Shown one piece after another: positions 10,971 through 26,348 of a stretch of DNA of 64,000 bases. The notes below the pieces were generated by a model. It was not told where the DNA came from. It saw nothing but the letters and a program-made list of their open reading frames with translations, and ran no database searches. The translations under genes and the position numbers were made by a program. Source of the stretch: an uncultured Pseudomonadota bacterium. Lineage in GTDB: Bacteria > Babelota > Babeliae > Babelales > Vermiphilaceae. Every line of letters begins with the position of its first letter. Position 1 is the first letter of the stretch. The stretch spans positions 271,774 to 335,773 of the forward strand of contig CAZKLV010000002.1 in NCBI GenBank assembly GCA_964553945.1. The letters run 5' to 3'.

Positions 10971-11924
10971 ATGAAACACCCATTCCTCATCATTATTTTA
11001 TTCAGCATCAGTTCATGCCTTCCTGGCATCTTGAAAGCCATGAATACCCAGGATCGGGAATTGTTTGAGAAATTCTTGGAAAATTATACATATAAGGATA
11101 GGATTCTGAGCAACCTCCAAACCGAAATCAACATTATTCAGGAGGATAAACTCACTCTTTTACAGAAAGCTGCGCTTGAGAAAAACGAAATAATCTGCTG
11201 CAAACTACTTGAAATGGGCGCTAACCCAAATGTTCGCTACCTTGATGATAAACCAGCGCTGCTGATTGCGATTGGGAAACATCTATCGAAAGCAAGTTGC
11301 CTTATGATCCAAAAAGGAGCTTACATCTATATAAGCGATAACAAATCAACAACTTTACAACTCGCCTGCAAAGAAAATCTAACCGATGTTTGCTTGATGC
11401 TCATAGCTAAAGGAGCAAGTGTCGAGTCAAAAGAATTTACTTATACACATCCATTGCAGACAGCAATCGATAAAGATAATTATAGGGTATGCCGAGCATT
11501 GTTAAGACGAAACGCACCGATGGGTAGCAAATTGGATAAACGCTTAGGAGCAACACCTTCAGCGTTGCGATATGCTGCACGGGACAAAAGGGGAAATGCA
11601 TGCCGCGCAATTCTTGCTCATACATTGTTTCAATCAAAAGAACCGATTTTTAAATTACTGCTTATCCTGCGCAGGATGCGCCAATCTCAATTAGATTGTC
11701 CATCATTACTGTATTCAAAGTTCAAAGAACTCATGGCTCGCCCCATGCTCTATATATTAGCAATTGAGAATAGAAATGATCTTATTCAAAAACTTGAGCA
11801 TAACAAGCACTTCAAAGATTTTCCCATCGATCTACTTGATATCATGCATATAGATCAAACTATTCAGGTATTAGTGAAAGAAGAGCTCGATAACATTCAA
11901 AACTCTGAATTAAAGAATGTATAG
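10971..11924 (+). CDS. leader-bearing ankyrin-repeat protein
   Basis: Leader MKHPFLIIILFSISSCLPGILKAM. ANK repeats include LTLLQKAALEKNEIICCKLLEMGANPN and TTLQLACKENLTDVCLMLIAKGASV. Confidence 0.8.
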   Translation: MKHPFLIIILFSISSCLPGILKAMNTQDRELFEKFLENYTYKDRILSNLQTEINIIQEDKLTLLQKAALEKNEIICCKLLEMGANPNVRYLDDKPALLIAIGKHLSKASCLMIQKGAYIYISDNKSTTLQLACKENLTDVCLMLIAKGASVESKEFTYTHPLQTAIDKDNYRVCRALLRRNAPMGSKLDKRLGATPSALRYAARDKRGNACRAILAHTLFQSKEPIFKLLLILRRMRQSQLDCPSLLYSKFKELMARPMLYILAIENRNDLIQKLEHNKHFKDFPIDLLDIMHIDQTIQVLVKEELDNIQNSELKNV

Positions 11925-15164: not shown

Positions 15165-15353
15165 ATGGACCCTCTGCAGAAATTAAAACATATTGCATCA
15201 CCATCACTTGCTCAATGTTATCAAGAGTATAAAAACAATCCTCCTTGCATGAAAGTTGATCGCCAAAATCATGCTGAGTGTTGTGGATGCAAAGAGCCAT
15301 GCTGCACCATACAAATACCAGCCATACCAAAAGACCAAAAGGAGCGAGAATGA
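15165..15353 (+). CDS. possible small Cys-rich protein (62 aa), ATGA-coupled to the WD40 gene
   Basis: Open frame MDPLQKLKH...ECCGCKEPCCTIQ with 7 Cys. Its TGA overlaps the ATG at 15350. No homology recognised, so it may be non-coding. Confidence 0.25.
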   Translation: MDPLQKLKHIASPSLAQCYQEYKNNPPCMKVDRQNHAECCGCKEPCCTIQIPAIPKDQKERE

Positions 15354-16825
15354 AGAGAATCATATTGCTTGCTGGATTGCTATTAAATCTTCAGGCGCTC
15401 ATCGCCATGGAGAGACCACCCAAGAGAATGTCAATAGAACAGATCAACACCATAAAACATACGTTTTTAAACGATCATGAAACCTTTAAAAACCTCTATC
15501 AAACTCGCGCGAGGCTACCCCTAGATTTAAGCAAATTACTTGCACAGATGATTATTACTCCCGCAATAAAACTCGCGTGCCAAAACGTAGCTGTTCCGTA
15601 TAAAGTACTTAAGCATAAAGACCGACATGTTGATTGCGCAAAGTTTAACCCGGCAGGAACGGCCATTGTTTCTGGTACACCAGACGGACTTGTACATATA
15701 TGGGATGTTGCAAGCGGTAAAGAAATTCAGACCATCAAAGCTCATGAACACGGCGCTTATGAACATGGTCAAGTCTTGGTAGCAAATTTCAGCCCAAACG
15801 GCCAGCTTATTATTACAGGATCATCACAAGGAACTGCTAAAGTATGGAATTTGCAAGACGGATCCTGCTTATTTACAGCAAATCATCCAAGCGATAAACT
15901 GGGAAGCAGCTTAGTTACAACAGCAGCTTTCAATTCGAGCGATACTGAATTGGTAACGGCATCAAGGAGTGGCTTCGCTTATATATTCACTAACTGGGCA
16001 AAACCAGGAACACCTGCTCTTCATATTAAAGCTGAAAAAGGAATCGCAAAAGCCATGATCCAGCCACACGGAAAGATCATCGCACTTGGTTTAATGAATG
16101 GCAATATTGTGCTCTGGGATTTTAATAAAGGCGAGTGCCTCAAACAACTCGAGGGGCACACCGGATGCATTGACTATGTTCACTTCAATCCAGATGGAAC
16201 CCTTCTTGCCTCAGCAGCAGAAGATAAAACGGTAAAAATATGGGATATCAATACCGGAAAATGTATTCATAACCTCACTCAACACCAAGCAAGAGTATTG
16301 TGCGCTGAGTTCGATTCAACGGGCGCCTTCTTAAGCTCCACAGATACCTGTGGAAACACTAAAATATGGGATGTTTCTACCGGAACATGCTTGCGCACAC
16401 TTGATCTCCATACATGCTTGATTCATATGACTGAACATAGAGATGACCAATGGTTTGCCCGCACAACCTCTAAGCAAGTCCCAGCCCGGGTTCGCTCAGC
16501 ATCATTTAGTCCAGACGGAAAACGCCTTGCAACCGCCTCACATGACTATACAGTGCGAATCTGGGATTTAAAAGACTTCATGGAATCGATCGAATTTCTA
16601 AAAAAGAGCCTTACTCTTGAACAAGCACTCCTTATTAATTTGATCTTTGAAACTGCACAATTAAACAAGCTATGTGAAAAACGCACCAAGAATCCAATCA
16701 CGCACCAACTGGATTTTTCAAAATTTGAACACCTTAAAACCTATTTCCAAGAACTACCCGAGCCAATTCAAAACGCGCTCAAACCATATATAAAACAAAA
16801 AGAAGAGGGCTGTGTAATTTTTTAA
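15350..16825 (+). CDS. leader-bearing WD40 beta-propeller protein with C-terminal CaaX box (CVIF)
   Basis: AAAGGAG precedes the ATG at 15350. Several WD repeats are present (GTPDGLVHIWDV, SSQGTAKVWNL, AAEDKTVKIWDI, DTCGNTKIWDV, ASHDYTVRIWDL). The protein ends in EEGCVIF followed by the stop. Confidence 0.85.
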   Translation: MKRIILLAGLLLNLQALIAMERPPKRMSIEQINTIKHTFLNDHETFKNLYQTRARLPLDLSKLLAQMIITPAIKLACQNVAVPYKVLKHKDRHVDCAKFNPAGTAIVSGTPDGLVHIWDVASGKEIQTIKAHEHGAYEHGQVLVANFSPNGQLIITGSSQGTAKVWNLQDGSCLFTANHPSDKLGSSLVTTAAFNSSDTELVTASRSGFAYIFTNWAKPGTPALHIKAEKGIAKAMIQPHGKIIALGLMNGNIVLWDFNKGECLKQLEGHTGCIDYVHFNPDGTLLASAAEDKTVKIWDINTGKCIHNLTQHQARVLCAEFDSTGAFLSSTDTCGNTKIWDVSTGTCLRTLDLHTCLIHMTEHRDDQWFARTTSKQVPARVRSASFSPDGKRLATASHDYTVRIWDLKDFMESIEFLKKSLTLEQALLINLIFETAQLNKLCEKRTKNPITHQLDFSKFEHLKTYFQELPEPIQNALKPYIKQKEEGCVIF

Positions 16826-16932: not shown

Positions 16933-18192
16933 CTAACTATTAATATACCCATCAAGCATCTGCGCCCATACGCTATCTTGGCCCCATTGAGTTGATGCAT
17001 AATCTGAATCAAGATACGCATTGCGCTCAAAATAAAAACTAATTCCAGAAGCACGTGGAAAATCTGATCCTTTTACTTGCGCAAGAACCGTTGATTTGAG
17101 TGCTTTGACAGCTGCCGCAATCGCATTATTGAGTTGCTTCAGTAATGCTTTGTCACTCACTTTTGCTTTACCAAGATTTGCTTTGAGATTATTCAAAAAA
17201 TCACCAATATCGATAAAACTATTCTCTGTGAAGAAGGTACAACGATTTGGATCGGCGCTTGCTTGAATTGCGAGTTTAATAACATCCGCATCTTTTGAGC
17301 TCAAAAATGATAGAATAACAGTTGCAACATGATCAAGCGCTGCTTTAAAGCCGGCAATTTGAGATAAATCGATTGCAGAAAGCGTGTAATCGGTTGTAAT
17401 GCTGTTATATAATGCGCCGTAATCTTTCACCATATCTTGCGCCATCTTGACAGCTTTAAGATTCGGCTTTGATGCCAAATTCAATGCAGTATCATACGGA
17501 TACCCTTGGCCTGGAATTGTTTCTTCAGATGCAACCAAGTATTTTGCATAAGAGCTGGCCGCATAAGCAACTTCAACATTTGCCATTAAACATGCATCGA
17601 ATGCGACAATATCAACTTTTTTACCGCCGCGTAATTGCACCGCTTGCTCAAGAACCGCGATCAAATCTTGATCGGTAAAATACGATCCGGTTGTATCATC
17701 ATAGCAAAATGCGCGATCCGCCGGAGTGCCCCACGGCTTGCCAAAGAATGTACTCACGAGCCCATTACGATTTAATGGTCCAGAGCCATGGTTCCAGAAA
17801 ACTATCACAAAATTATCTGACGGAAACTTTGACGTTGCCCATGTAACCGCATCGATTGCTGTTTGCGCAGCACCGCTATCCTTATCCATATCAGGGCCAT
17901 CTTGTAGAGCCTGGCCCTTTTGAACAACCAATGCACGAGTCCACTTAGAAGAATTATCTTTTGAGCTGACGTAGGCAAGAATATTCACATTTTGATTCGA
18001 TCCAATCTTTTGCATCTCTTCTAAATCCAAATGAATGAAATCGGCCAAACTATTATCGCCCGCAATATAGACAAGCACCGTTGCTTGTTTTTTGGCAAGC
18101 GGCGATGCTACATCTTTGCGTTGCCATGATAACGCAAATGCGTTCATTGAAATGAGCAAACCAATGCTCAATGATATTTGTTTTTTGTACAT
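16933..18192 (-). CDS. secreted clostripain-family (C11) cysteine peptidase
   Basis: His motif FVIVFWNHGSGP and Cys motif DIVAFDACLMANVE form the C11 catalytic dyad context. N-terminal leader MYKKQISLSIGLLISMNAFA. GGGAG precedes the ATG at 18192. Confidence 0.8.
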   Translation of the reverse strand: MYKKQISLSIGLLISMNAFALSWQRKDVASPLAKKQATVLVYIAGDNSLADFIHLDLEEMQKIGSNQNVNILAYVSSKDNSSKWTRALVVQKGQALQDGPDMDKDSGAAQTAIDAVTWATSKFPSDNFVIVFWNHGSGPLNRNGLVSTFFGKPWGTPADRAFCYDDTTGSYFTDQDLIAVLEQAVQLRGGKKVDIVAFDACLMANVEVAYAASSYAKYLVASEETIPGQGYPYDTALNLASKPNLKAVKMAQDMVKDYGALYNSITTDYTLSAIDLSQIAGFKAALDHVATVILSFLSSKDADVIKLAIQASADPNRCTFFTENSFIDIGDFLNNLKANLGKAKVSDKALLKQLNNAIAAAVKALKSTVLAQVKGSDFPRASGISFYFERNAYLDSDYASTQWGQDSVWAQMLDGYINS

Positions 18193-18276
18193 ATGTGGCT
18201 CCCAGAAAAGAAATGAAACATTTTGTACAGATAATGTGATAAATTTCATAAAGTGACCGCAATAGTTTTGATAGGA

Positions 18277-19347
18277 TCAACAAAAAATATCTCGAAATAC
18301 AAAAGTTAGCCCAGTTGCTTTTGAAAGTTGCGCCCCAATTGCATATTGAACAATGCATGCATTCAATGCTCTCTTTGCAGAAGCTATATTTTTTCTCAAT
18401 TGCCCGTATATCGATTTACCTGCGATTTCTGCTCGTGCAATCTGCGATTGCAGATTGGCTAAAAAATGTCCAAGGTCCAACCGACTTTGTTCCCCGAAGA
18501 AAGTACAATTGCTACAGCAAGAACTTTCGATTAACATTTGTTGCAACATACTCTTGGCACCCTTTAATATTTCATGAACCGAAAGAACAGTCTTATCCAT
18601 TAGCTCTGATAATCTTTGTACCTTGGAAAGATCTATTGCGCAGAGCGAATAGTCACTTCGGATTTGTTCATATCTCTCTTCATATGCATTGCACATATCA
18701 AATGCCATTCTGCCAGCACAGAAGAAAACATCTTTTACCGCATATTTTAATGCCGCAAGATAAGGAAACCAATCGCTCGATTTATACCCCTCAGATGCAA
18801 CCATGAACTTTGCGCAAGGAGCCAACATACGCGCTATCTCCAGACTTGCCATCATATCTGCATCAAATGCAACTAGATCTATCATCGTGCCTCGCACAGC
18901 AAAAAGATACGAGACGATTTGCTGGATTTGCTCGGCGGCAAGGGGCGATCCTCGTGATGATGCACAAAAAACCAAAACAAACTTCTCCGAAGGAAACTTT
19001 TCATGCGCCCAGCGGCAAGCATTGATTCCATTGTTCACCCAAGACTCTTCAACATCAATATTTTCTCGATCCTCAAAGAGGGAAGCCTTATCGCCAATTG
19101 GAGCCTGAATCACTTTTCCCGCACCATTCATTAATGCAGAATAAACTAAGACGTTAACACTTTCAGTTGCAGCAACTTTTTGCAATTCTTTACAAATCAT
19201 TTGGACATAATCAAGCGGAGTGTCTTGCGAAATATAAATCAAAATGGTGACTTGTTTTATCGGACAAGCAGTATTGGTATCTACACACCCAGAAGCGGCA
19301 AAGAAAACAATTTGAAAAAGACCAAAAACAACCACCTTAATATTCAT
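18277..19347 (-). CDS. C11-like pseudo-peptidase (both catalytic residues substituted)
   Basis: Collinear with 16933-18192, but the His motif reads FVLVFCASSRGSP and the Cys motif reads DLVAFDADMMASLE. The leader has a possible lipobox, FFAASGC. Confidence 0.7.
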   Translation of the reverse strand: MNIKVVVFGLFQIVFFAASGCVDTNTACPIKQVTILIYISQDTPLDYVQMICKELQKVAATESVNVLVYSALMNGAGKVIQAPIGDKASLFEDRENIDVEESWVNNGINACRWAHEKFPSEKFVLVFCASSRGSPLAAEQIQQIVSYLFAVRGTMIDLVAFDADMMASLEIARMLAPCAKFMVASEGYKSSDWFPYLAALKYAVKDVFFCAGRMAFDMCNAYEERYEQIRSDYSLCAIDLSKVQRLSELMDKTVLSVHEILKGAKSMLQQMLIESSCCSNCTFFGEQSRLDLGHFLANLQSQIARAEIAGKSIYGQLRKNIASAKRALNACIVQYAIGAQLSKATGLTFVFRDIFC

Positions 19348-19660: not shown

Positions 19661-21550
19661 ATGGCAAAAATTATCGGTATTGATTTGGGAACAACCAACT
19701 CTTGCGTATCCTTCATGGAAGGTGGAGTCGCAAAGGTTATTCCAAACAAAGAAGGTGATAACACCACCCCTTCGGTCGTGGCGTTCACCAAAGACGGCAA
19801 ACGGTTGGTCGGTGTTTTGGCAAAGCGCCAAGCGATTACCAACCCTGAAAATACCATATTTTCAGCAAAACGCCTGATCGGACATAAATTTGAAGAGGTC
19901 CAAGCCGAAACGAAGCGCCTTCCTTATAAAGTTGTCCGTCGCGAGAATGGAGATTGTGCAATCGAAGCACAAGGAAAATTGTATAGTCCACAAGAAATTT
20001 CAGCAGCCGTTTTGAGCTACCTCAAACAAGCAGCGGAAGATTACCTTGGCGAACCGGTAACCCAAGCGGTTATTACCGTTCCAGCCTACTTCAATGACCA
20101 ACAACGCCAAGCAACCAAAGATGCAGGTAGAATTGCCGGCCTAGACGTCAAACGTATCATCAACGAACCAACCGCTGCGGCACTTGCCTACGGCTTTGAT
20201 AAAAAGAAAAGCGGTAAAGTTGCGGTCTTTGACTTTGGTGGTGGAACATTTGATATTTCAATTCTTGAAATATCAGCTGACGGTGTAATTGAAGTCAAAT
20301 CAACCAATGGCGATACTCACCTTGGTGGCGATGATATCGATTCACTCATCATCGATTTCTTGGTTAGCGAATTCAAACGCGAACAAGGCATTGATCTACA
20401 CTCTGATAAAATGGCACTCCAACGCCTCAAAGAAGCTGCCGAAAAAGCAAAAAAAGAACTTTCAAGCATGCCTGAAGTTGAAATTAACTTGCCATACATC
20501 ACAGCGGATGCAACTGGCCCGAAGCATTTAATCGTAAAACTATCGCGCGCAAAACTCGAATCATTGTGTTCAGATATTTTCCGCCGCTTACTCGAACCAT
20601 GCAAAAAAGCACTTGCCGATGCGAAGATGAATGCAAGTGAAGTCGATCAAGTAATTTTAGTTGGCGGTTCAACTCGTATGCCAAAAGTACAACAATTGGT
20701 TAAAGACTTCTTTGGTAAAGAACCAAACAAATCGGTTAATCCTGATGAAGTAGTTGCCGATGGTGCAGCAATTCAAGGTGGCGTACTCACTGGCGAAGTA
20801 ACTGACGTGCTTTTACTTGATGTTACTCCACTTTCTCTTGGCATCGAAACTATGGGCGGCATTGCAACAAAATTAATTGAACGCAATACCACGATTCCAA
20901 CTCGCAAATCACAAATATTTTCAACTGCTGAACCAAATCAAACGGCAGTTGATATTCGCGTGGTTCAAGGTGAACGAGAGTTTGCAAAAGACAATAAACT
21001 CTTGGGCCAATTCCGCCTCGAAGGTATTCCTGCAGCTCCACGTGGCGTGCCACAAATCGAAGTAACTTTTGATATTGATGCGAATGGCATTGTACACGTA
21101 TCAGCTAAAGATAAAGCAACCAATAAAGAACAAAAAATTGCTATCACTTCAGGTAGCGGCCTTTCAAAAGAAGAAATCGAAAAAATGGTACAAGATGCGA
21201 AAATTCACGAAGCTGAAGATAAAGCAGCTCGTGAAGCGGTCGAAAAACGCAATCGGCTCGATAGTACTATTTTGGAAGTTGAAAAAACTCTCACCGAGCA
21301 CAAAGAAAAATTGAGCGCGGATGAGGTAAGCAAAACAGAAGCAGCTCTTGAAAAAGCAAAACAAGCTCTTAAGGACCATGCAAATAATCCAGAAGAGCTC
21401 GAGAAGGCTACGCAAGAATTGATTCAAGCTTCGCATAAAGTTGCTGAGATTCTGTATAGCCAAGCGCAAGCTTCACAAACTCAAAGCCAAGGCCAATCAG
21501 AAGAAAGCAAGCCCGAAGCTGATCCGATTGATGCTGAAATCAATAATTAA
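19661..21550 (+). CDS. dnaK: molecular chaperone DnaK (Hsp70)
   Basis: [28 protein letters not shown]-type motif ([14 protein letters not shown]) and [21 protein letters not shown] precedes the ATG at 19661. The upstream extension to 19538 was rejected. Confidence 0.97.
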
Positions 21551-21574
21551 AAACTAAGAAATCAGAGCAATTTG

Positions 21575-21606
21575 AAAGCCCGCCACCAAAAATGGCGGGC
21601 TTTTCT
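21575..21606 (+). terminator. intrinsic terminator of dnaK
   Basis: aaagcccgcc-accaaaaat-ggcgggcttt followed by T residues, 25 nt after the stop. Confidence 0.8.
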
Positions 21607-21728
21607 GTACCGCGCAAACCTGAAAACCCCTTAAACAAAGCACTTTTATTGATTTTCATACTCCTATTTTGTTAAATTAAAAGTGTAAAAAGGTTTAAAG
21701 TATTTTATCGCCCCAAAAAGGAGAGGTT

Positions 21729-21833
21729 ATGAATACCTATGAAAAAAATGAAAAAACATGCGAAATCTGCGGATGCGAATGCGAATGCAAAGGCTGCGAC
21801 TGCGAATGCGGATGCAATTGCGGATGTGAGTAA
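21729..21833 (+). CDS. 34-aa (CxC)n cysteine-rich peptide, metallothionein-like (not in the ORF track)
   Basis: AGGAG lies 5 nt upstream of the ATG. Translation is MNTYEKNEKTCEICGCECECKGCDCECGCNCGCE, with 11 Cys in 34 residues. A hairpin terminator follows. Confidence 0.5.
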   Translation: MNTYEKNEKTCEICGCECECKGCDCECGCNCGCE

Positions 21834-21873
21834 GAAAAAAAAGAAAAGTAGCTCTTCATTACTCGAATTTATG

Positions 21874-21917
21874 AAAAAACCCGTCAAATCCTAAAGGAAA
21901 TGACGGGTTAATCTTTT
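21874..21917. terminator. bidirectional terminator shared by the micro-ORF and the DUF378 gene
   Basis: aacccgtca/tgacgggtt 9-bp stem flanked by an A-run and a T-rich tract, between convergent stops. Confidence 0.6.
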
Positions 21918-21926
21918 CTAAAGATA

Positions 21927-22187
21927 TTACTTACCAGAACAACTTGGGCAAGAATCACTACCGCAATGGCAATGTCCGGTCAATGTTTTAATAAACATAA
22001 CCAAGCAAATCAAACCAGCTACACCAATAACATAATGAAGCGGCGCATTCAAAGCAGGATATTTAACCATTAAAAAATCACTTGCAAAAACATCATAACC
22101 GAATGGCGCAAGACCAACGTTGATTGATGCAAGCGCAGTTATTACCCATGCCAAAAAACCAACAAAACGATGTAGAGTAGACTTCAT
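21927..22187 (-). CDS. DUF378-family small membrane protein with Cys/His-rich C-terminal tail
   Basis: FLAWVITALASINVGLAPFGYDVF...LHYVIGVAGLICL matches the YuzA/DUF378 pattern. There is an extra tail, TGHCHCGSDSCPSCSGK. Confidence 0.65.
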   Translation of the reverse strand: MKSTLHRFVGFLAWVITALASINVGLAPFGYDVFASDFLMVKYPALNAPLHYVIGVAGLICLVMFIKTLTGHCHCGSDSCPSCSGK

Positions 22188-22372
22188 TCGCCTTCTCCCT
22201 TCTTAAAAAAGTTAAACGATACTTCCTTCTAGACTCTCTCTTCATAACATAAAAAATTTTGAGGTGCAATCCTTCGATACATTTTTTCATTAATGTTCAA
22301 AAACATCCTTTGATAAACTCAGAACAGTTCTCAGGACAAGCGGCTTAATTATTAAAAAATTTATTCCATTTT

Positions 22373-23416
<1,044 letters not shown>

Positions 23417-23503
23417 ACTCGTCCTTTGAAAAGATATAGTATTTTTTCTCTGCGAGTATCGCATAAGATTTACTCGAATCTCAATTGATCGAAAATAATT
23501 GAA

Positions 23504-24793
23504 TTATTTAACAATCAATAACTCTCGCCAATCGGTGGTGAATCGTGCCGATCGATTTGTCCGATCGGTTTGCGTCATTTTGATATTGGAAATACCAACC
23601 GCTCCGCTAATAATCGTATGCCGGCCCCACTTTGCATTGATTCGATCCATCGTTTTCATAAGCGTATGATGAGCCGAAATGTTTGGCACATGTTCAAATG
23701 CATGAATTTGAACATGATCTCGCGGCACAAAATCAAAGAGCAAAACTCCTGCTTGCTTGTAATCGTACCCATCGCGATAAATCGCTTCAAGCGCTCGGCG
23801 CGCGGCCGTAATTAATATTGGGGTGTAGTCGGTCGGCTCTGGAAGTTCAACGGTATAGGCATTACTGTAATAGACATCATGATTAAATCTACTTGTCGTG
23901 ATAAATACTTGCAATGCCCCCGCTTTGCAATCTTGATCGCGCAATTTGGCAGCTGCACGTGAAATATAGGCCGCGATCGCTTCCATCAGGTGGGTGAATG
24001 TTCGTTTTGGTGTACTAAATGAACGCGTACATGCAATGGTCTGTTTATCTTCAACTTGTTCATCGATAGTAATGCACGAAATGCCACGTAATTCATGTGC
24101 AGTGCGCAGTCCAACAATGGTGAAATTTTTACGGATCCATTCATCCTTTTGCTGTGCAAAATCATACGCCGTATAGAGTCGATACCACTGTAATTTTTTG
24201 GTATATTGGCGCCCAATGCCCCATACATCTTCAACGGGAACAGCCTTCAGGATTTCATCCCACGGCCGTTCGTTGCCAAGAATTGAGGAATCTTGCGACC
24301 GTATTAAAAACACGCCCCCATACTGCGAATTCTTTTTTGCAATTTTAGTCGCAATTTTTGCAAGCGTTTTGGTTGGCGCGATTCCAATCGAGATGGGAAT
24401 GCCGGTCCACTGTTTGACCATTTTACAAAGCATGCGCCCATGCTCTTCCAATTGCTCAAGCGGGACATGCTTCATGCACAAAAACGCTTCATCGATCGAA
24501 TAGACTTCCACATGCGGCACAAACTGCTCAAGCGTTTGCATTACGCGTGCGGACATATCGCCATAGAGTGCAAAATTAGAAGAATAGACATGCACCTTAT
24601 TGCGAGCAACTACACCGGCACATTCAAATAATGGTTGTGCCATTTTAATGCCAAGCGCTTTGGCTTCATTAGAGCGCGCAATAATACATCCATCATTATT
24701 AGAGAGCACCACGACCGGCTTTCCATTTAATTTAGGATTGAATACCCGTTCACACGAGACATAGAAATTATTGCAGTCGACTAAAGCAATCAT
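23504..24793 (-). CDS. umuC: Y-family translesion DNA polymerase subunit UmuC
   Basis: [51 protein letters not shown] is the UmuC/ImpB N-terminus. An alternative start exists at 24811. Confidence 0.9.
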
Positions 24794-24950
24794 AAAAATT
24801 TCATGATCCATTCGTATATAATACTCACCGGCTCGATCATTCGAGAACCTTAGAATCTGAAAAAATATTTGGATTAATATTTATTTATGAAGATCTAAAT
24901 TAACAAACTCAATTCGGCCTGCGCATGCAAGTTAAGAGCAAAAAATATAA

Positions 24951-25901: not shown

Positions 25902-26348
25902 TTAAACACTATGTATCACAAAAGTCACCACACCCCAGACATCAAATGACATTTCATCTGTAATGCGTTGCGGTTTATAATTTTTATTTTCCGGCACCAA
26001 ATAGGTGTGCCGTGCGCGATGCTCAATTCTTTTGACCGTAAATTCACCATTAATCTGAGCCACCACGATGCGCCCATGCCGCACTTCAAGTGCACGATCA
26101 ACAATTAAAAGATCACCCGAGTAAATTCCGGCATTGATCATGGAATCGCCTTCAACGCGAATAAAAAATGTAGCAGCAGGATGTTGTATGAGAAATTTAT
26201 TCAGATCAAGTTGATTCTCAACGTAATCATCAGCAGCAGATGGAAATCCGGCGGAAATATAATCAAGAACAAACGGGATTTCGCAATCCGAGGGCGCTAC
26301 TTTGGGAATACCAAAAGCGGTAATAATAAGATCTTTTTTTGATAACAT
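25902..26348 (-). CDS. umuD: UmuD / LexA-like S24 peptidase
   Basis: GFPSAADDY, VEGDSMINAGIYSGDLLIVDR and INGEFTVKRIE carry the Ser and Lys dyad motifs of the S24 family. Confidence 0.85.
   Translation of the reverse strand: MLSKKDLIITAFGIPKVAPSDCEIPFVLDYISAGFPSAADDYVENQLDLNKFLIQHPAATFFIRVEGDSMINAGIYSGDLLIVDRALEVRHGRIVVAQINGEFTVKRIEHRARHTYLVPENKNYKPQRITDEMSFDVWGVVTFVIHSV

Follow-up and report, generated by a model that had tools for sequence, protein, structure and literature searches.

Thioneins usually have a cysteine density of 25-33%; the spacers of the classical ones favour Lys, Ser and Gly, and patterns made of CxC only are typical of copper thioneins. To our knowledge, the bacterial metallothioneins known are few, essentially SmtA/BmtA and MymT, and they were found one by one. 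Metallothioneins fall into at least 15 convergent families, with motifs that include CXCXC and CXCXCXC (PMC7216689), and in the ciliate copper thioneins CXC makes up 92% of the clusters (PMC4862169). MymT, encoded by an unannotated 4.9-kDa Cys-rich open reading frame (ORF), is a bacterial thionein for Cu(I), and copper resistance depends on it (PMC7558416). Here we describe a Cys-rich micro-ORF of 34 amino acids (aa) in DNA of an uncultured bacterium of the GTDB lineage Vermiphilaceae (contig CAZKLV010000002.1, positions 271,774 to 335,773). This stretch of 64,000 nucleotides (nt) is called the window below. The micro-ORF lies downstream of dnaK and is convergent with a gene for an 86-aa membrane protein with two predicted transmembrane helices (the 2-TM gene). 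The best reading of its product, judged from sequence, is that it belongs to a new family of metallothionein-like peptides.

The micro-ORF (21729-21833, + strand) encodes MNTYEKNEKTCEICGCECECKGCDCECGCNCGCE, 34 aa from the start codon ATG at 21729 to a stop codon at 21831-21833. It is preceded by a Shine-Dalgarno box, AAGGAG (21718-21723, +), with 5 nt between the end of AGGAG and the ATG. The initial annotation had this ORF, its start and its ribosome-binding site exactly right. In an alignment of seven related loci, AAGGAG and the ATG were the sole invariant upstream columns, and no conserved operator or palindrome was found in it beyond the Shine-Dalgarno box. The Cys core (21759-21830, +) comprises 24 codons and carries 11 Cys in the arrangement CX2CXCXCXCX2CXCXCXCXCXC, so that Cys accounts for 11 of the 34 residues of the peptide (32%) and for 11 of 23 in the core. 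The total of 11 Cys given earlier holds, whereas the claim that nine of them alternate strictly has to be amended: ten lie within two CxC runs (C14-16-18-20 and C23-25-27-29-31-33). All spacings in the core are CxC or CxxC, and there are neither Cys-Cys doublets nor aromatic residues in the window's core. The window peptide has a single aromatic residue, a Tyr in its N-terminal part; the cores of two relatives contain one Phe each. The peptide is strongly acidic, with eight acidic and three basic residues, and its spacers are mostly Glu or Asp. It has no signal peptide and, in view of this missing leader, should be cytoplasmic.

Seven further versions of the micro-ORF were found, five in assemblies and two among called proteins, and all eight versions, the window's included, have the identical pattern CX2CXCXCXCX2CXCXCXCXCXC. 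This set array of Cys is the one feature under strict conservation. The sequence is conserved in the related loci L001, L006, L011, L012 and L094 and in the proteins P0019 and P0020. A Cys-rich ORF occupies the same convergent position in the contigs of 2-TM homologues L001-L003, L005, L006, L008, L009 and L094-L096. The 52-aa orthologue from L001 was used as protein-search query in place of the 34-aa window peptide; it retrieved two called proteins, and in their contigs (L011 and L012) the 2-TM gene again follows downstream in convergent orientation. Among 1.84 billion representative proteins, a profile search gave four matches, all of the micro-ORF family, and the new ones, P0019 and P0020, are independent gene calls that both start at the same Met. 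A metagenome scan with the DNA pattern of C[DE]C[DE]CGCNCGC returned no match, which carries little weight because that collection does not hold the pattern-bearing JGI contigs L001-L005.

In the DNA of six lineages, the first two bases of every Cys codon are fixed, and the third varies between TGC and TGT in seven of the 11 codons. Summed over pairs, the ratio of nonsynonymous to synonymous differences (pN/pS) is 0.21 in the Cys frame, at a pS of 0.52, compared with 2.6 in the Ala-rich +1 frame (21739-21894) and 4.3 in the 60-aa mirror ORF on the minus strand (21705-21887). Because the Cys codons vary at the wobble position only, and because pN/pS is low in this frame alone, the micro-ORF is a real protein-coding gene, read in the Cys frame and under selection on its Cys positions. 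Conservation of the reading frame in relatives had been set beforehand as a test; it is the frame that is kept, and not merely the DNA repeat. The same figures bear out the initial annotation in taking the 60-aa minus-strand ORF for a non-coding mirror image. It could be argued that no Cys-coding gene exists at all, that only a DNA repeat is conserved, or that the real gene is the Ala-rich +1 ORF or the hydrophobic 60-aa ORF on the minus strand. All three frames are open in every lineage, the core DNA is a degenerate 6/12-nt repeat (TRF period 6 and 12 at 21768-21826), and public gene callers either miss the micro-ORF or choose the Ala frame, as a 38-aa ORF in L001-L005 and a 71-aa ORF in L094-L096. 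Given the pN/pS values, the clustering of changes at the Cys wobble position and a Shine-Dalgarno box that fits the ATG of the Cys frame, this explanation is extremely improbable. The wrong calls at the locus lie in the Ala-rich +1 frame at L001 5363-5479 (-) and L094 758-973 (-), and the called starts of P0009 and P0010 are 13-23 codons too far upstream.

The Cys pattern also exceeds chance. The micro-ORF is the sole ORF of the window with at least 8 Cys per 25 residues, and 40 Markov-simulated windows yielded one such ORF in total, with a maximum of 8 Cys compared with the 11 observed here. The identity of the pattern across eight diverged sequences weighs more than this simulation. The Cys codons are biased towards TGC (10 of 11 in the window and 53 of 66 over the six lineages, compared with 59% in the window's long ORFs; p = 3e-4). 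This bias could come from translational selection or from the repeat origin of the core.

The surroundings of the micro-ORF are consistent with an independent translated gene, with its own ribosome-binding site, the dnaK terminator upstream and a bidirectional terminator downstream. The co-directional upstream neighbour, dnaK (19661-21550, +), is followed by a terminator hairpin at 21575-21606 (+), GCCCGCCA/TGGCGGGC and then TTTTCT, which separates dnaK from the micro-ORF unit and lies about 120 nt before it. Between the stop codons of the two convergent genes there is a 32-nt hairpin of a bidirectional intrinsic terminator (21878-21909, both strands). The fold of the intergenic RNA has an energy of -22.8 kcal/mol (z = -5.2), and none of 200 shuffles was as stable; in the centroid fold of the whole transcript, the terminator hairpin alone is retained. 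Equivalent hairpins, with an A-run, a GC stem and a T-run but differing stem sequences, stand at the same place in all six related loci that were read. The hairpin shared by the convergent genes, as the initial annotation described it, is thus confirmed. A scan of 21300-22600 for consensus promoters and terminators found nothing, and its loop-size limit makes it miss the real hairpin. Rfam gave no family at the gathering threshold anywhere in the window, and no tRNA, rRNA or riboswitch was detected.

The window copy is the shortest of the family, as the peptides of its relatives measure 52-58 aa. In those relatives, a hydrophilic His-containing N-terminus (MNDHNHK...QKPSPK) precedes the core and an acidic tail (DEPLVEEEE) follows it. 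Relative to L094, the N-terminal region of the window copy has a deletion of about 42 nt. Its tail is cut by a nonsense change, GAA>TAA, at 21831, and a remnant of the acidic tail follows at 21834-21851 (+). In a DNA alignment with L094 and L001, GAG TAA GAA AAA AAA GAA AAG TAG of the window stands against GAT GAA GAA GAA ATC AAA GAA GAA GAT TAA of the relatives. What the window copy retains is exactly the part that is invariant in every relative.

Taken together, these features suggest that the product of the micro-ORF may well be a cytoplasmic, metallothionein-like metal-thiolate buffer for Cu(I) or Zn/Cd, a reading that we hold with moderate confidence. The apo-peptide, unfolded, would close around several soft metal ions and bind them by its thiolates, the ions being Cu(I) or Zn(II)/Cd(II). 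It would act as a buffer against metal or thiol-oxidative stress; the bacterium probably lives inside protists, and in such a lifestyle copper and zinc intoxication by the host is expected. Metal binding, the identity of the metal and the stoichiometry are suggested by composition. The peptide agrees with the operational description of metallothioneins in its low mass (below about 10 kDa, at 34 aa in the window and 52-58 aa in relatives), in its high Cys content arranged in CxC and CxxC motifs, and in its few aromatic residues. The reading is also supported by the tail of the 2-TM protein, described below, which is predicted on the same cytoplasmic side.

Compared with the known systems, the micro-ORF product resembles MymT, a very small (4.9 kDa) Cys-rich cytoplasmic peptide whose ORF was missed by annotation, which binds several Cu(I) and belongs to a bacterium that lives inside phagocytic cells (PMC7558416). 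It differs in that MymT has fewer Cys, in mixed motifs with His, a distinction drawn from description and not from a direct alignment, and none of the searches made here detected a relationship in sequence. MymT moreover lies within a copper-responsive regulon, whereas no metal regulator is visible in the window. CxC is the dominant Cys motif here, as it is in the eukaryotic copper thioneins (ciliate subfamily 7b and the fungal Cu-MTs). The count of 11 Cys equals that of the mammalian metallothionein alpha-domain, where 11 Cys are the ligands of the M(II)4 alpha-cluster. The product of the micro-ORF is unusual in its unbroken 4+6 Cys alternation and its Glu/Asp-rich spacers; it matches no Metallothio_* model, and its core density of 11/23 lies above the usual 25-33%. 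SmtA/BmtA (Zn4Cys9His2) is set apart by its zinc-finger-like fold, His ligands and family signature, and Pfam, NCBIfam and PDB searches gave no such match.

Several observations weigh against the metallothionein-like reading. Nine peptides searched against Pfam at E<=10 gave no relevant match, Metallothio_* models included; the NCBIfam search of the micro-ORF peptide gave none, and phmmer and hmmsearch against the PDB returned chance matches to cytochrome c3 alone (E about 0.9). The Glu/Asp-rich spacers are unlike those of classical thioneins, and no copper or zinc regulator, exporter or metallochaperone was found within the 64-kb window. The window copy, without the leader segment and the acidic tail that its relatives keep, may be decaying. 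Of the lineages that are among the closest to the window by their 2-TM protein, L010 has no small ORF, an ankyrin-repeat gene standing 84 nt after the 2-TM gene, and L093 has at that place a Cys-free, His/Gln/Lys-rich ORF of 68 aa in the same Shine-Dalgarno context.

The L093 ORF was considered as an orthologue of the micro-ORF that had lost its core, and this was rejected. It is better explained as an orthologue of a second small gene of L001, with which it shares 47.6% identity (E 1.7e-10), whereas it has about 11 N-terminal residues alone in common with the Cys peptide (E = 0.007). This second small gene encodes a Cys-free product of 64-68 aa in which His, Gln, Lys and Pro abound (MNNHNKRP...QKP...; L001 7708-7902 (-) and L093 2308-2514 (-)). 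It shares the AAAAAGGAGnnGTTATG start context and is absent from the window. In L001 it stands directly after dnaK, and in L093 at the spot of the Cys micro-ORF. The Cys-free gene and the Cys peptide are possibly paralogous.

The convergent gene (21927-22187, -) encodes an 86-aa two-helix membrane protein of a divergent DUF378 branch, recognized by two hydrophobic segments and by its homologues. Its ribosome-binding site AGGGAGAAGG is at 22191-22200 (-, read as reverse complement). The protein ends in a Cys/His tail, GHCHCGSDSCPSCSGK (21930-21977, -), which is predicted to be cytoplasmic and is conserved in seven close homologues with 64-75% identity; the tail pointed out in the initial annotation therefore stands. 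The same annotation called the protein DUF378/YuzA-like with two transmembrane helices. The helices are supported: two hydrophobic 18-mers occur in all 33 family sequences scored (32 complete metagenome ORFs and the window's). Its DUF378 assignment needs qualification, as the window protein itself has no match to PF04070 at E<=1. Five of 12 family members (best E 6.5e-4), and in a larger set 12 of 26 (best E 5.4e-7), do match PF04070, so the family is a divergent DUF378 branch; the homology of the window protein to DUF378 is supported by transitivity, through its relatives, and not by a direct match. JGI names one homologue YuzA. In size and in its two transmembrane helices the protein resembles DUF378/YuzA (PF04070, COG2155), a family of about 70-90 aa. 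What sets its branch apart from that family at large is the C-terminal tail, rich in Cys and often containing His, together with a fixed synteny with ychF and dnaK. No function has been assigned to DUF378 in any of the 13 papers in which it is mentioned.

The tail contains 1-8 Cys in all 33 family members, often with His, as in CCPGCGSCPCTCNKM, GGGCCCGSCHHGHGSKDHAHKGM and HCRCCE. Net charge summed over the 33 sequences is positive for the N-terminus (+41) and the tail (+35) and negative for the loop (-18), and by the positive-inside rule both termini are predicted to lie inside, with the tail in the reducing cytoplasm. An AlphaFold model of the 86-aa protein places helices at residues 4-29 and 44-70 at low confidence (mean pLDDT 66). 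Some members have duplicated or much extended Cys tails (protein P0011, 102 aa, and L110, L112 and L125), for example GHCNCDSGSCSSCKGSACNCGSSSCPSCKGKM. The tail seems to evolve by repeat expansion, like the core of the micro-ORF. One member of the 2-TM family has a weak match (E 0.045) to the fungal metallothionein model Metallothio_11.

A metagenome scan brought together 33 loci with the 2-TM gene (L102-L134), in addition to L098-L101. The 2-TM gene is almost always divergent from ychF, at a distance of about 170-200 nt. In many loci it also faces dnaK directly, in convergent orientation, and the gap is often below 100 nt. DnaK of these loci is 74-77% identical to that of the window in distant cases and 88-89% in close ones. 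GH1 is found beyond ychF, and the YchF proteins of these lineages are 58-72% identical to the window's. No Cys-rich or related small ORF was present in the 33 metagenome loci or in L098-L101. Since the 2-TM gene stands beside ychF and dnaK without the micro-ORF in a wide range of lineages, the order in which ychF is divergent from the 2-TM gene and the latter convergent with dnaK is ancestral on these comparisons and lacked the micro-ORF. On the same comparison, the micro-ORF was inserted recently, in a single clade, in the interval from dnaK to the 2-TM gene. That clade also acquired umuDC and other genes on the opposite side of the 2-TM gene, towards ychF. An alignment-based scan for the 2-TM protein over the GTDB representatives (185,579 species genomes) found no relative, so that the pair is absent from them. 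The micro-ORF family is confined to a narrow clade of uncultured, probably host-associated bacteria.

A place beside dnaK and convergence with the 2-TM gene recur in six lineages, and in the window and in L011 the micro-ORF comes directly after dnaK. As the two genes are convergent and have separate promoters, they form no operon. The initial annotation had proposed a two-gene thiol module, which finds partial support. Both products are indeed thiol-rich and encoded side by side in six lineages. The absence of a small ORF from L010, the Cys-free gene of L093 and the far greater age and wide distribution of the 2-TM family show that the pairing is recent and dispensable, and therefore no obligate module. 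A functional link between the peptide and the tail of its neighbour is attractive, as both are thiol-rich and would share one side of the membrane, and it rests on adjacency in six lineages of one clade; against it stands the wide occurrence of the 2-TM gene without the peptide. In one version of such a link, the peptide and the cytoplasmic Cys/His tail would be the two parts of a thiolate relay on the inner side of the membrane. The relay would follow the hand-over logic of MerP/MerF to MerA, with a metallothionein-like acceptor, and we regard it as a distinctly unlikely arrangement. MerF is a small mercury transporter with Cys clusters on the cytoplasmic side, and the layout of two transmembrane helices and a juxtamembrane Cys tail is like that of MerF, a likeness that is architectural only. 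MerE likewise has short Cys clusters that face the cytoplasm. Clusters of this kind hand on or sense thiophilic metals, and the C-terminal CxCxxxxCxC motif of CopY is one of them (PMC12648655, PMC7558416). Unlike these proteins, the 86-aa protein and its family match no corresponding model: none of 38 family members matched the MerF, MerE or MerT models of Pfam, and no CopY model was matched. Nor is there a mer or cop operon around the gene, whose neighbours are ychF, dnaK, umuDC and ankyrin-repeat genes.

Other functions for the peptide have to be weighed against metal buffering. It could be a thiol redox buffer, a sacrificial antioxidant or a cysteine store in a stress locus with dnaK and ychF, its 11 thiols cycling between thiol and disulfide or scavenging HOCl, reactive oxygen species and electrophiles. 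The position directly after dnaK in the window and in L011, the near-constant divergence of the 2-TM gene from ychF (named "redox-regulated ATPase" by NCBIfam) and acidic spacers that are atypical of classical thioneins would all fit. Such a role is unlikely, however, as the fixed spacing of 11 Cys over a pS of about 0.5 suggests a defined coordination geometry and not bulk thiol, and CxC neighbours make strained disulfides; metallothioneins scavenge oxidants too, and to that extent the two functions overlap. The initial annotation had offered a precursor of a modified peptide as its alternative, that is, a ribosomally synthesized and post-translationally modified peptide (RiPP) with, for example, azoline/thiazole or thioether groups, with the conserved N-terminus as its leader and the Cys array as its core. 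In the relatives the N-terminus does resemble a leader (MNDHNHK...QKP), and an acidic follower comes after the Cys-rich core. Yet the 51 long ORFs of the window include no YcaO, radical-SAM/SPASM, lanthipeptide or other maturase and no protease or export gene for such a peptide, the flanks of related loci also lack maturase domains, the window copy has just 10 residues ahead of its core, and the genomes appear small (about 1.4 Mb). The proposal has found no support here and is very improbable.

Since the dense run of one codon lies just 5' of a terminator, as in an attenuator, the micro-ORF might also be imagined as a regulatory leader, in which ribosome pausing at the 11 Cys codons senses Cys-tRNA and controls read-through of the shared terminator. 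Read-through would then produce transcription antisense to the 2-TM gene, whose product has a Cys-rich tail. There is, however, no co-directional gene downstream, the next gene being convergent, and the fold offers no antiterminator pairing as an alternative to the terminator, which stands alone in the centroid. Relatives differ widely in how far the hairpin lies from the stop codon, and their non-Cys N-terminus and acidic tail are conserved at the protein level, so that this role is an even more remote prospect than a modified peptide. A last possibility concerns this genome in particular, where the micro-ORF would be a decaying or nearly neutral remnant on its way to the loss seen in sister lineages. 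The lost tail, the shortened N-terminus and the state of L010 and L093, described above, speak for it, whereas none of the 11 Cys codons has been lost, the Shine-Dalgarno box, the ATG and the terminator are undamaged too, and the part kept is the part conserved everywhere. We regard decay as improbable; a metallothionein-like buffer remains the preferred reading.

The rest of the window bears on the lifestyle of the bacterium. It is unusually dense in genes for eukaryote-like repeat proteins. Pfam confirmed 15 ankyrin-repeat genes, of which several stand in tandem; there is also a gene for a WD40 beta-propeller protein, and two clostripain-like C11 peptidases are encoded next to each other. 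These eukaryote-like repeat proteins and clostripain-like peptidases are encoded at 10971-11924, 42542-43576, 44764-60907, 15278-16825 and 16933-19347. The nearest genomes by YchF are metagenome-assembled genomes with 62-69% identity and chromosomes of about 1.4 Mb. Because of the ankyrin-repeat, WD40 and clostripain-like genes and the small size of the nearest genomes, the bacterium is probably host-associated and intracellular, with a protist as host. Immediately upstream of the 86-aa gene lies a gene for a 363-aa protein (22373-23464, -) with about 100 residues of collagen-like Gly-X-Y repeats (Pfam Collagen, E 1.3e-15), where relatives have a 370-aa or a 409-aa gene without a strong Pfam match. 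The genes umuC (23504-24811, -) and umuD (25902-26348, -), for the error-prone polymerase V, flank a 304-aa unknown ORF; their insertion between ychF and the 2-TM gene is peculiar to this clade. The one MerR-family gene of the window (36915-37376, +) was considered as a metal sensor and rejected, as its product has no Cys. The C-terminus of this product is acidic, and an HspR-type heat-shock repressor is the likelier identity.

If the peptide is a metallothionein, it would add a further, unrelated family of extreme design, with Cys at half of the core positions, strictly alternating. Annotation does not see the family, which is skipped or called in the wrong frame and has four members in 1.84 billion representative proteins. 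A 6/12-nt repeat that expanded between two old stress genes seems to have given rise to the micro-ORF, which offers a clean case of a young micro-gene whose birth, trimming and loss can be traced across sister lineages. Should the thiolate relay prove true, it would give a first function to a DUF378 branch and would represent a new minimal system for handling metals or thiols, built into the ychF-dnaK stress locus of a lineage that is uncultured and probably associated with protists. The Cys-tailed DUF378 branch itself, tied to ychF and dnaK, is a lead to the function of a domain that has had none.

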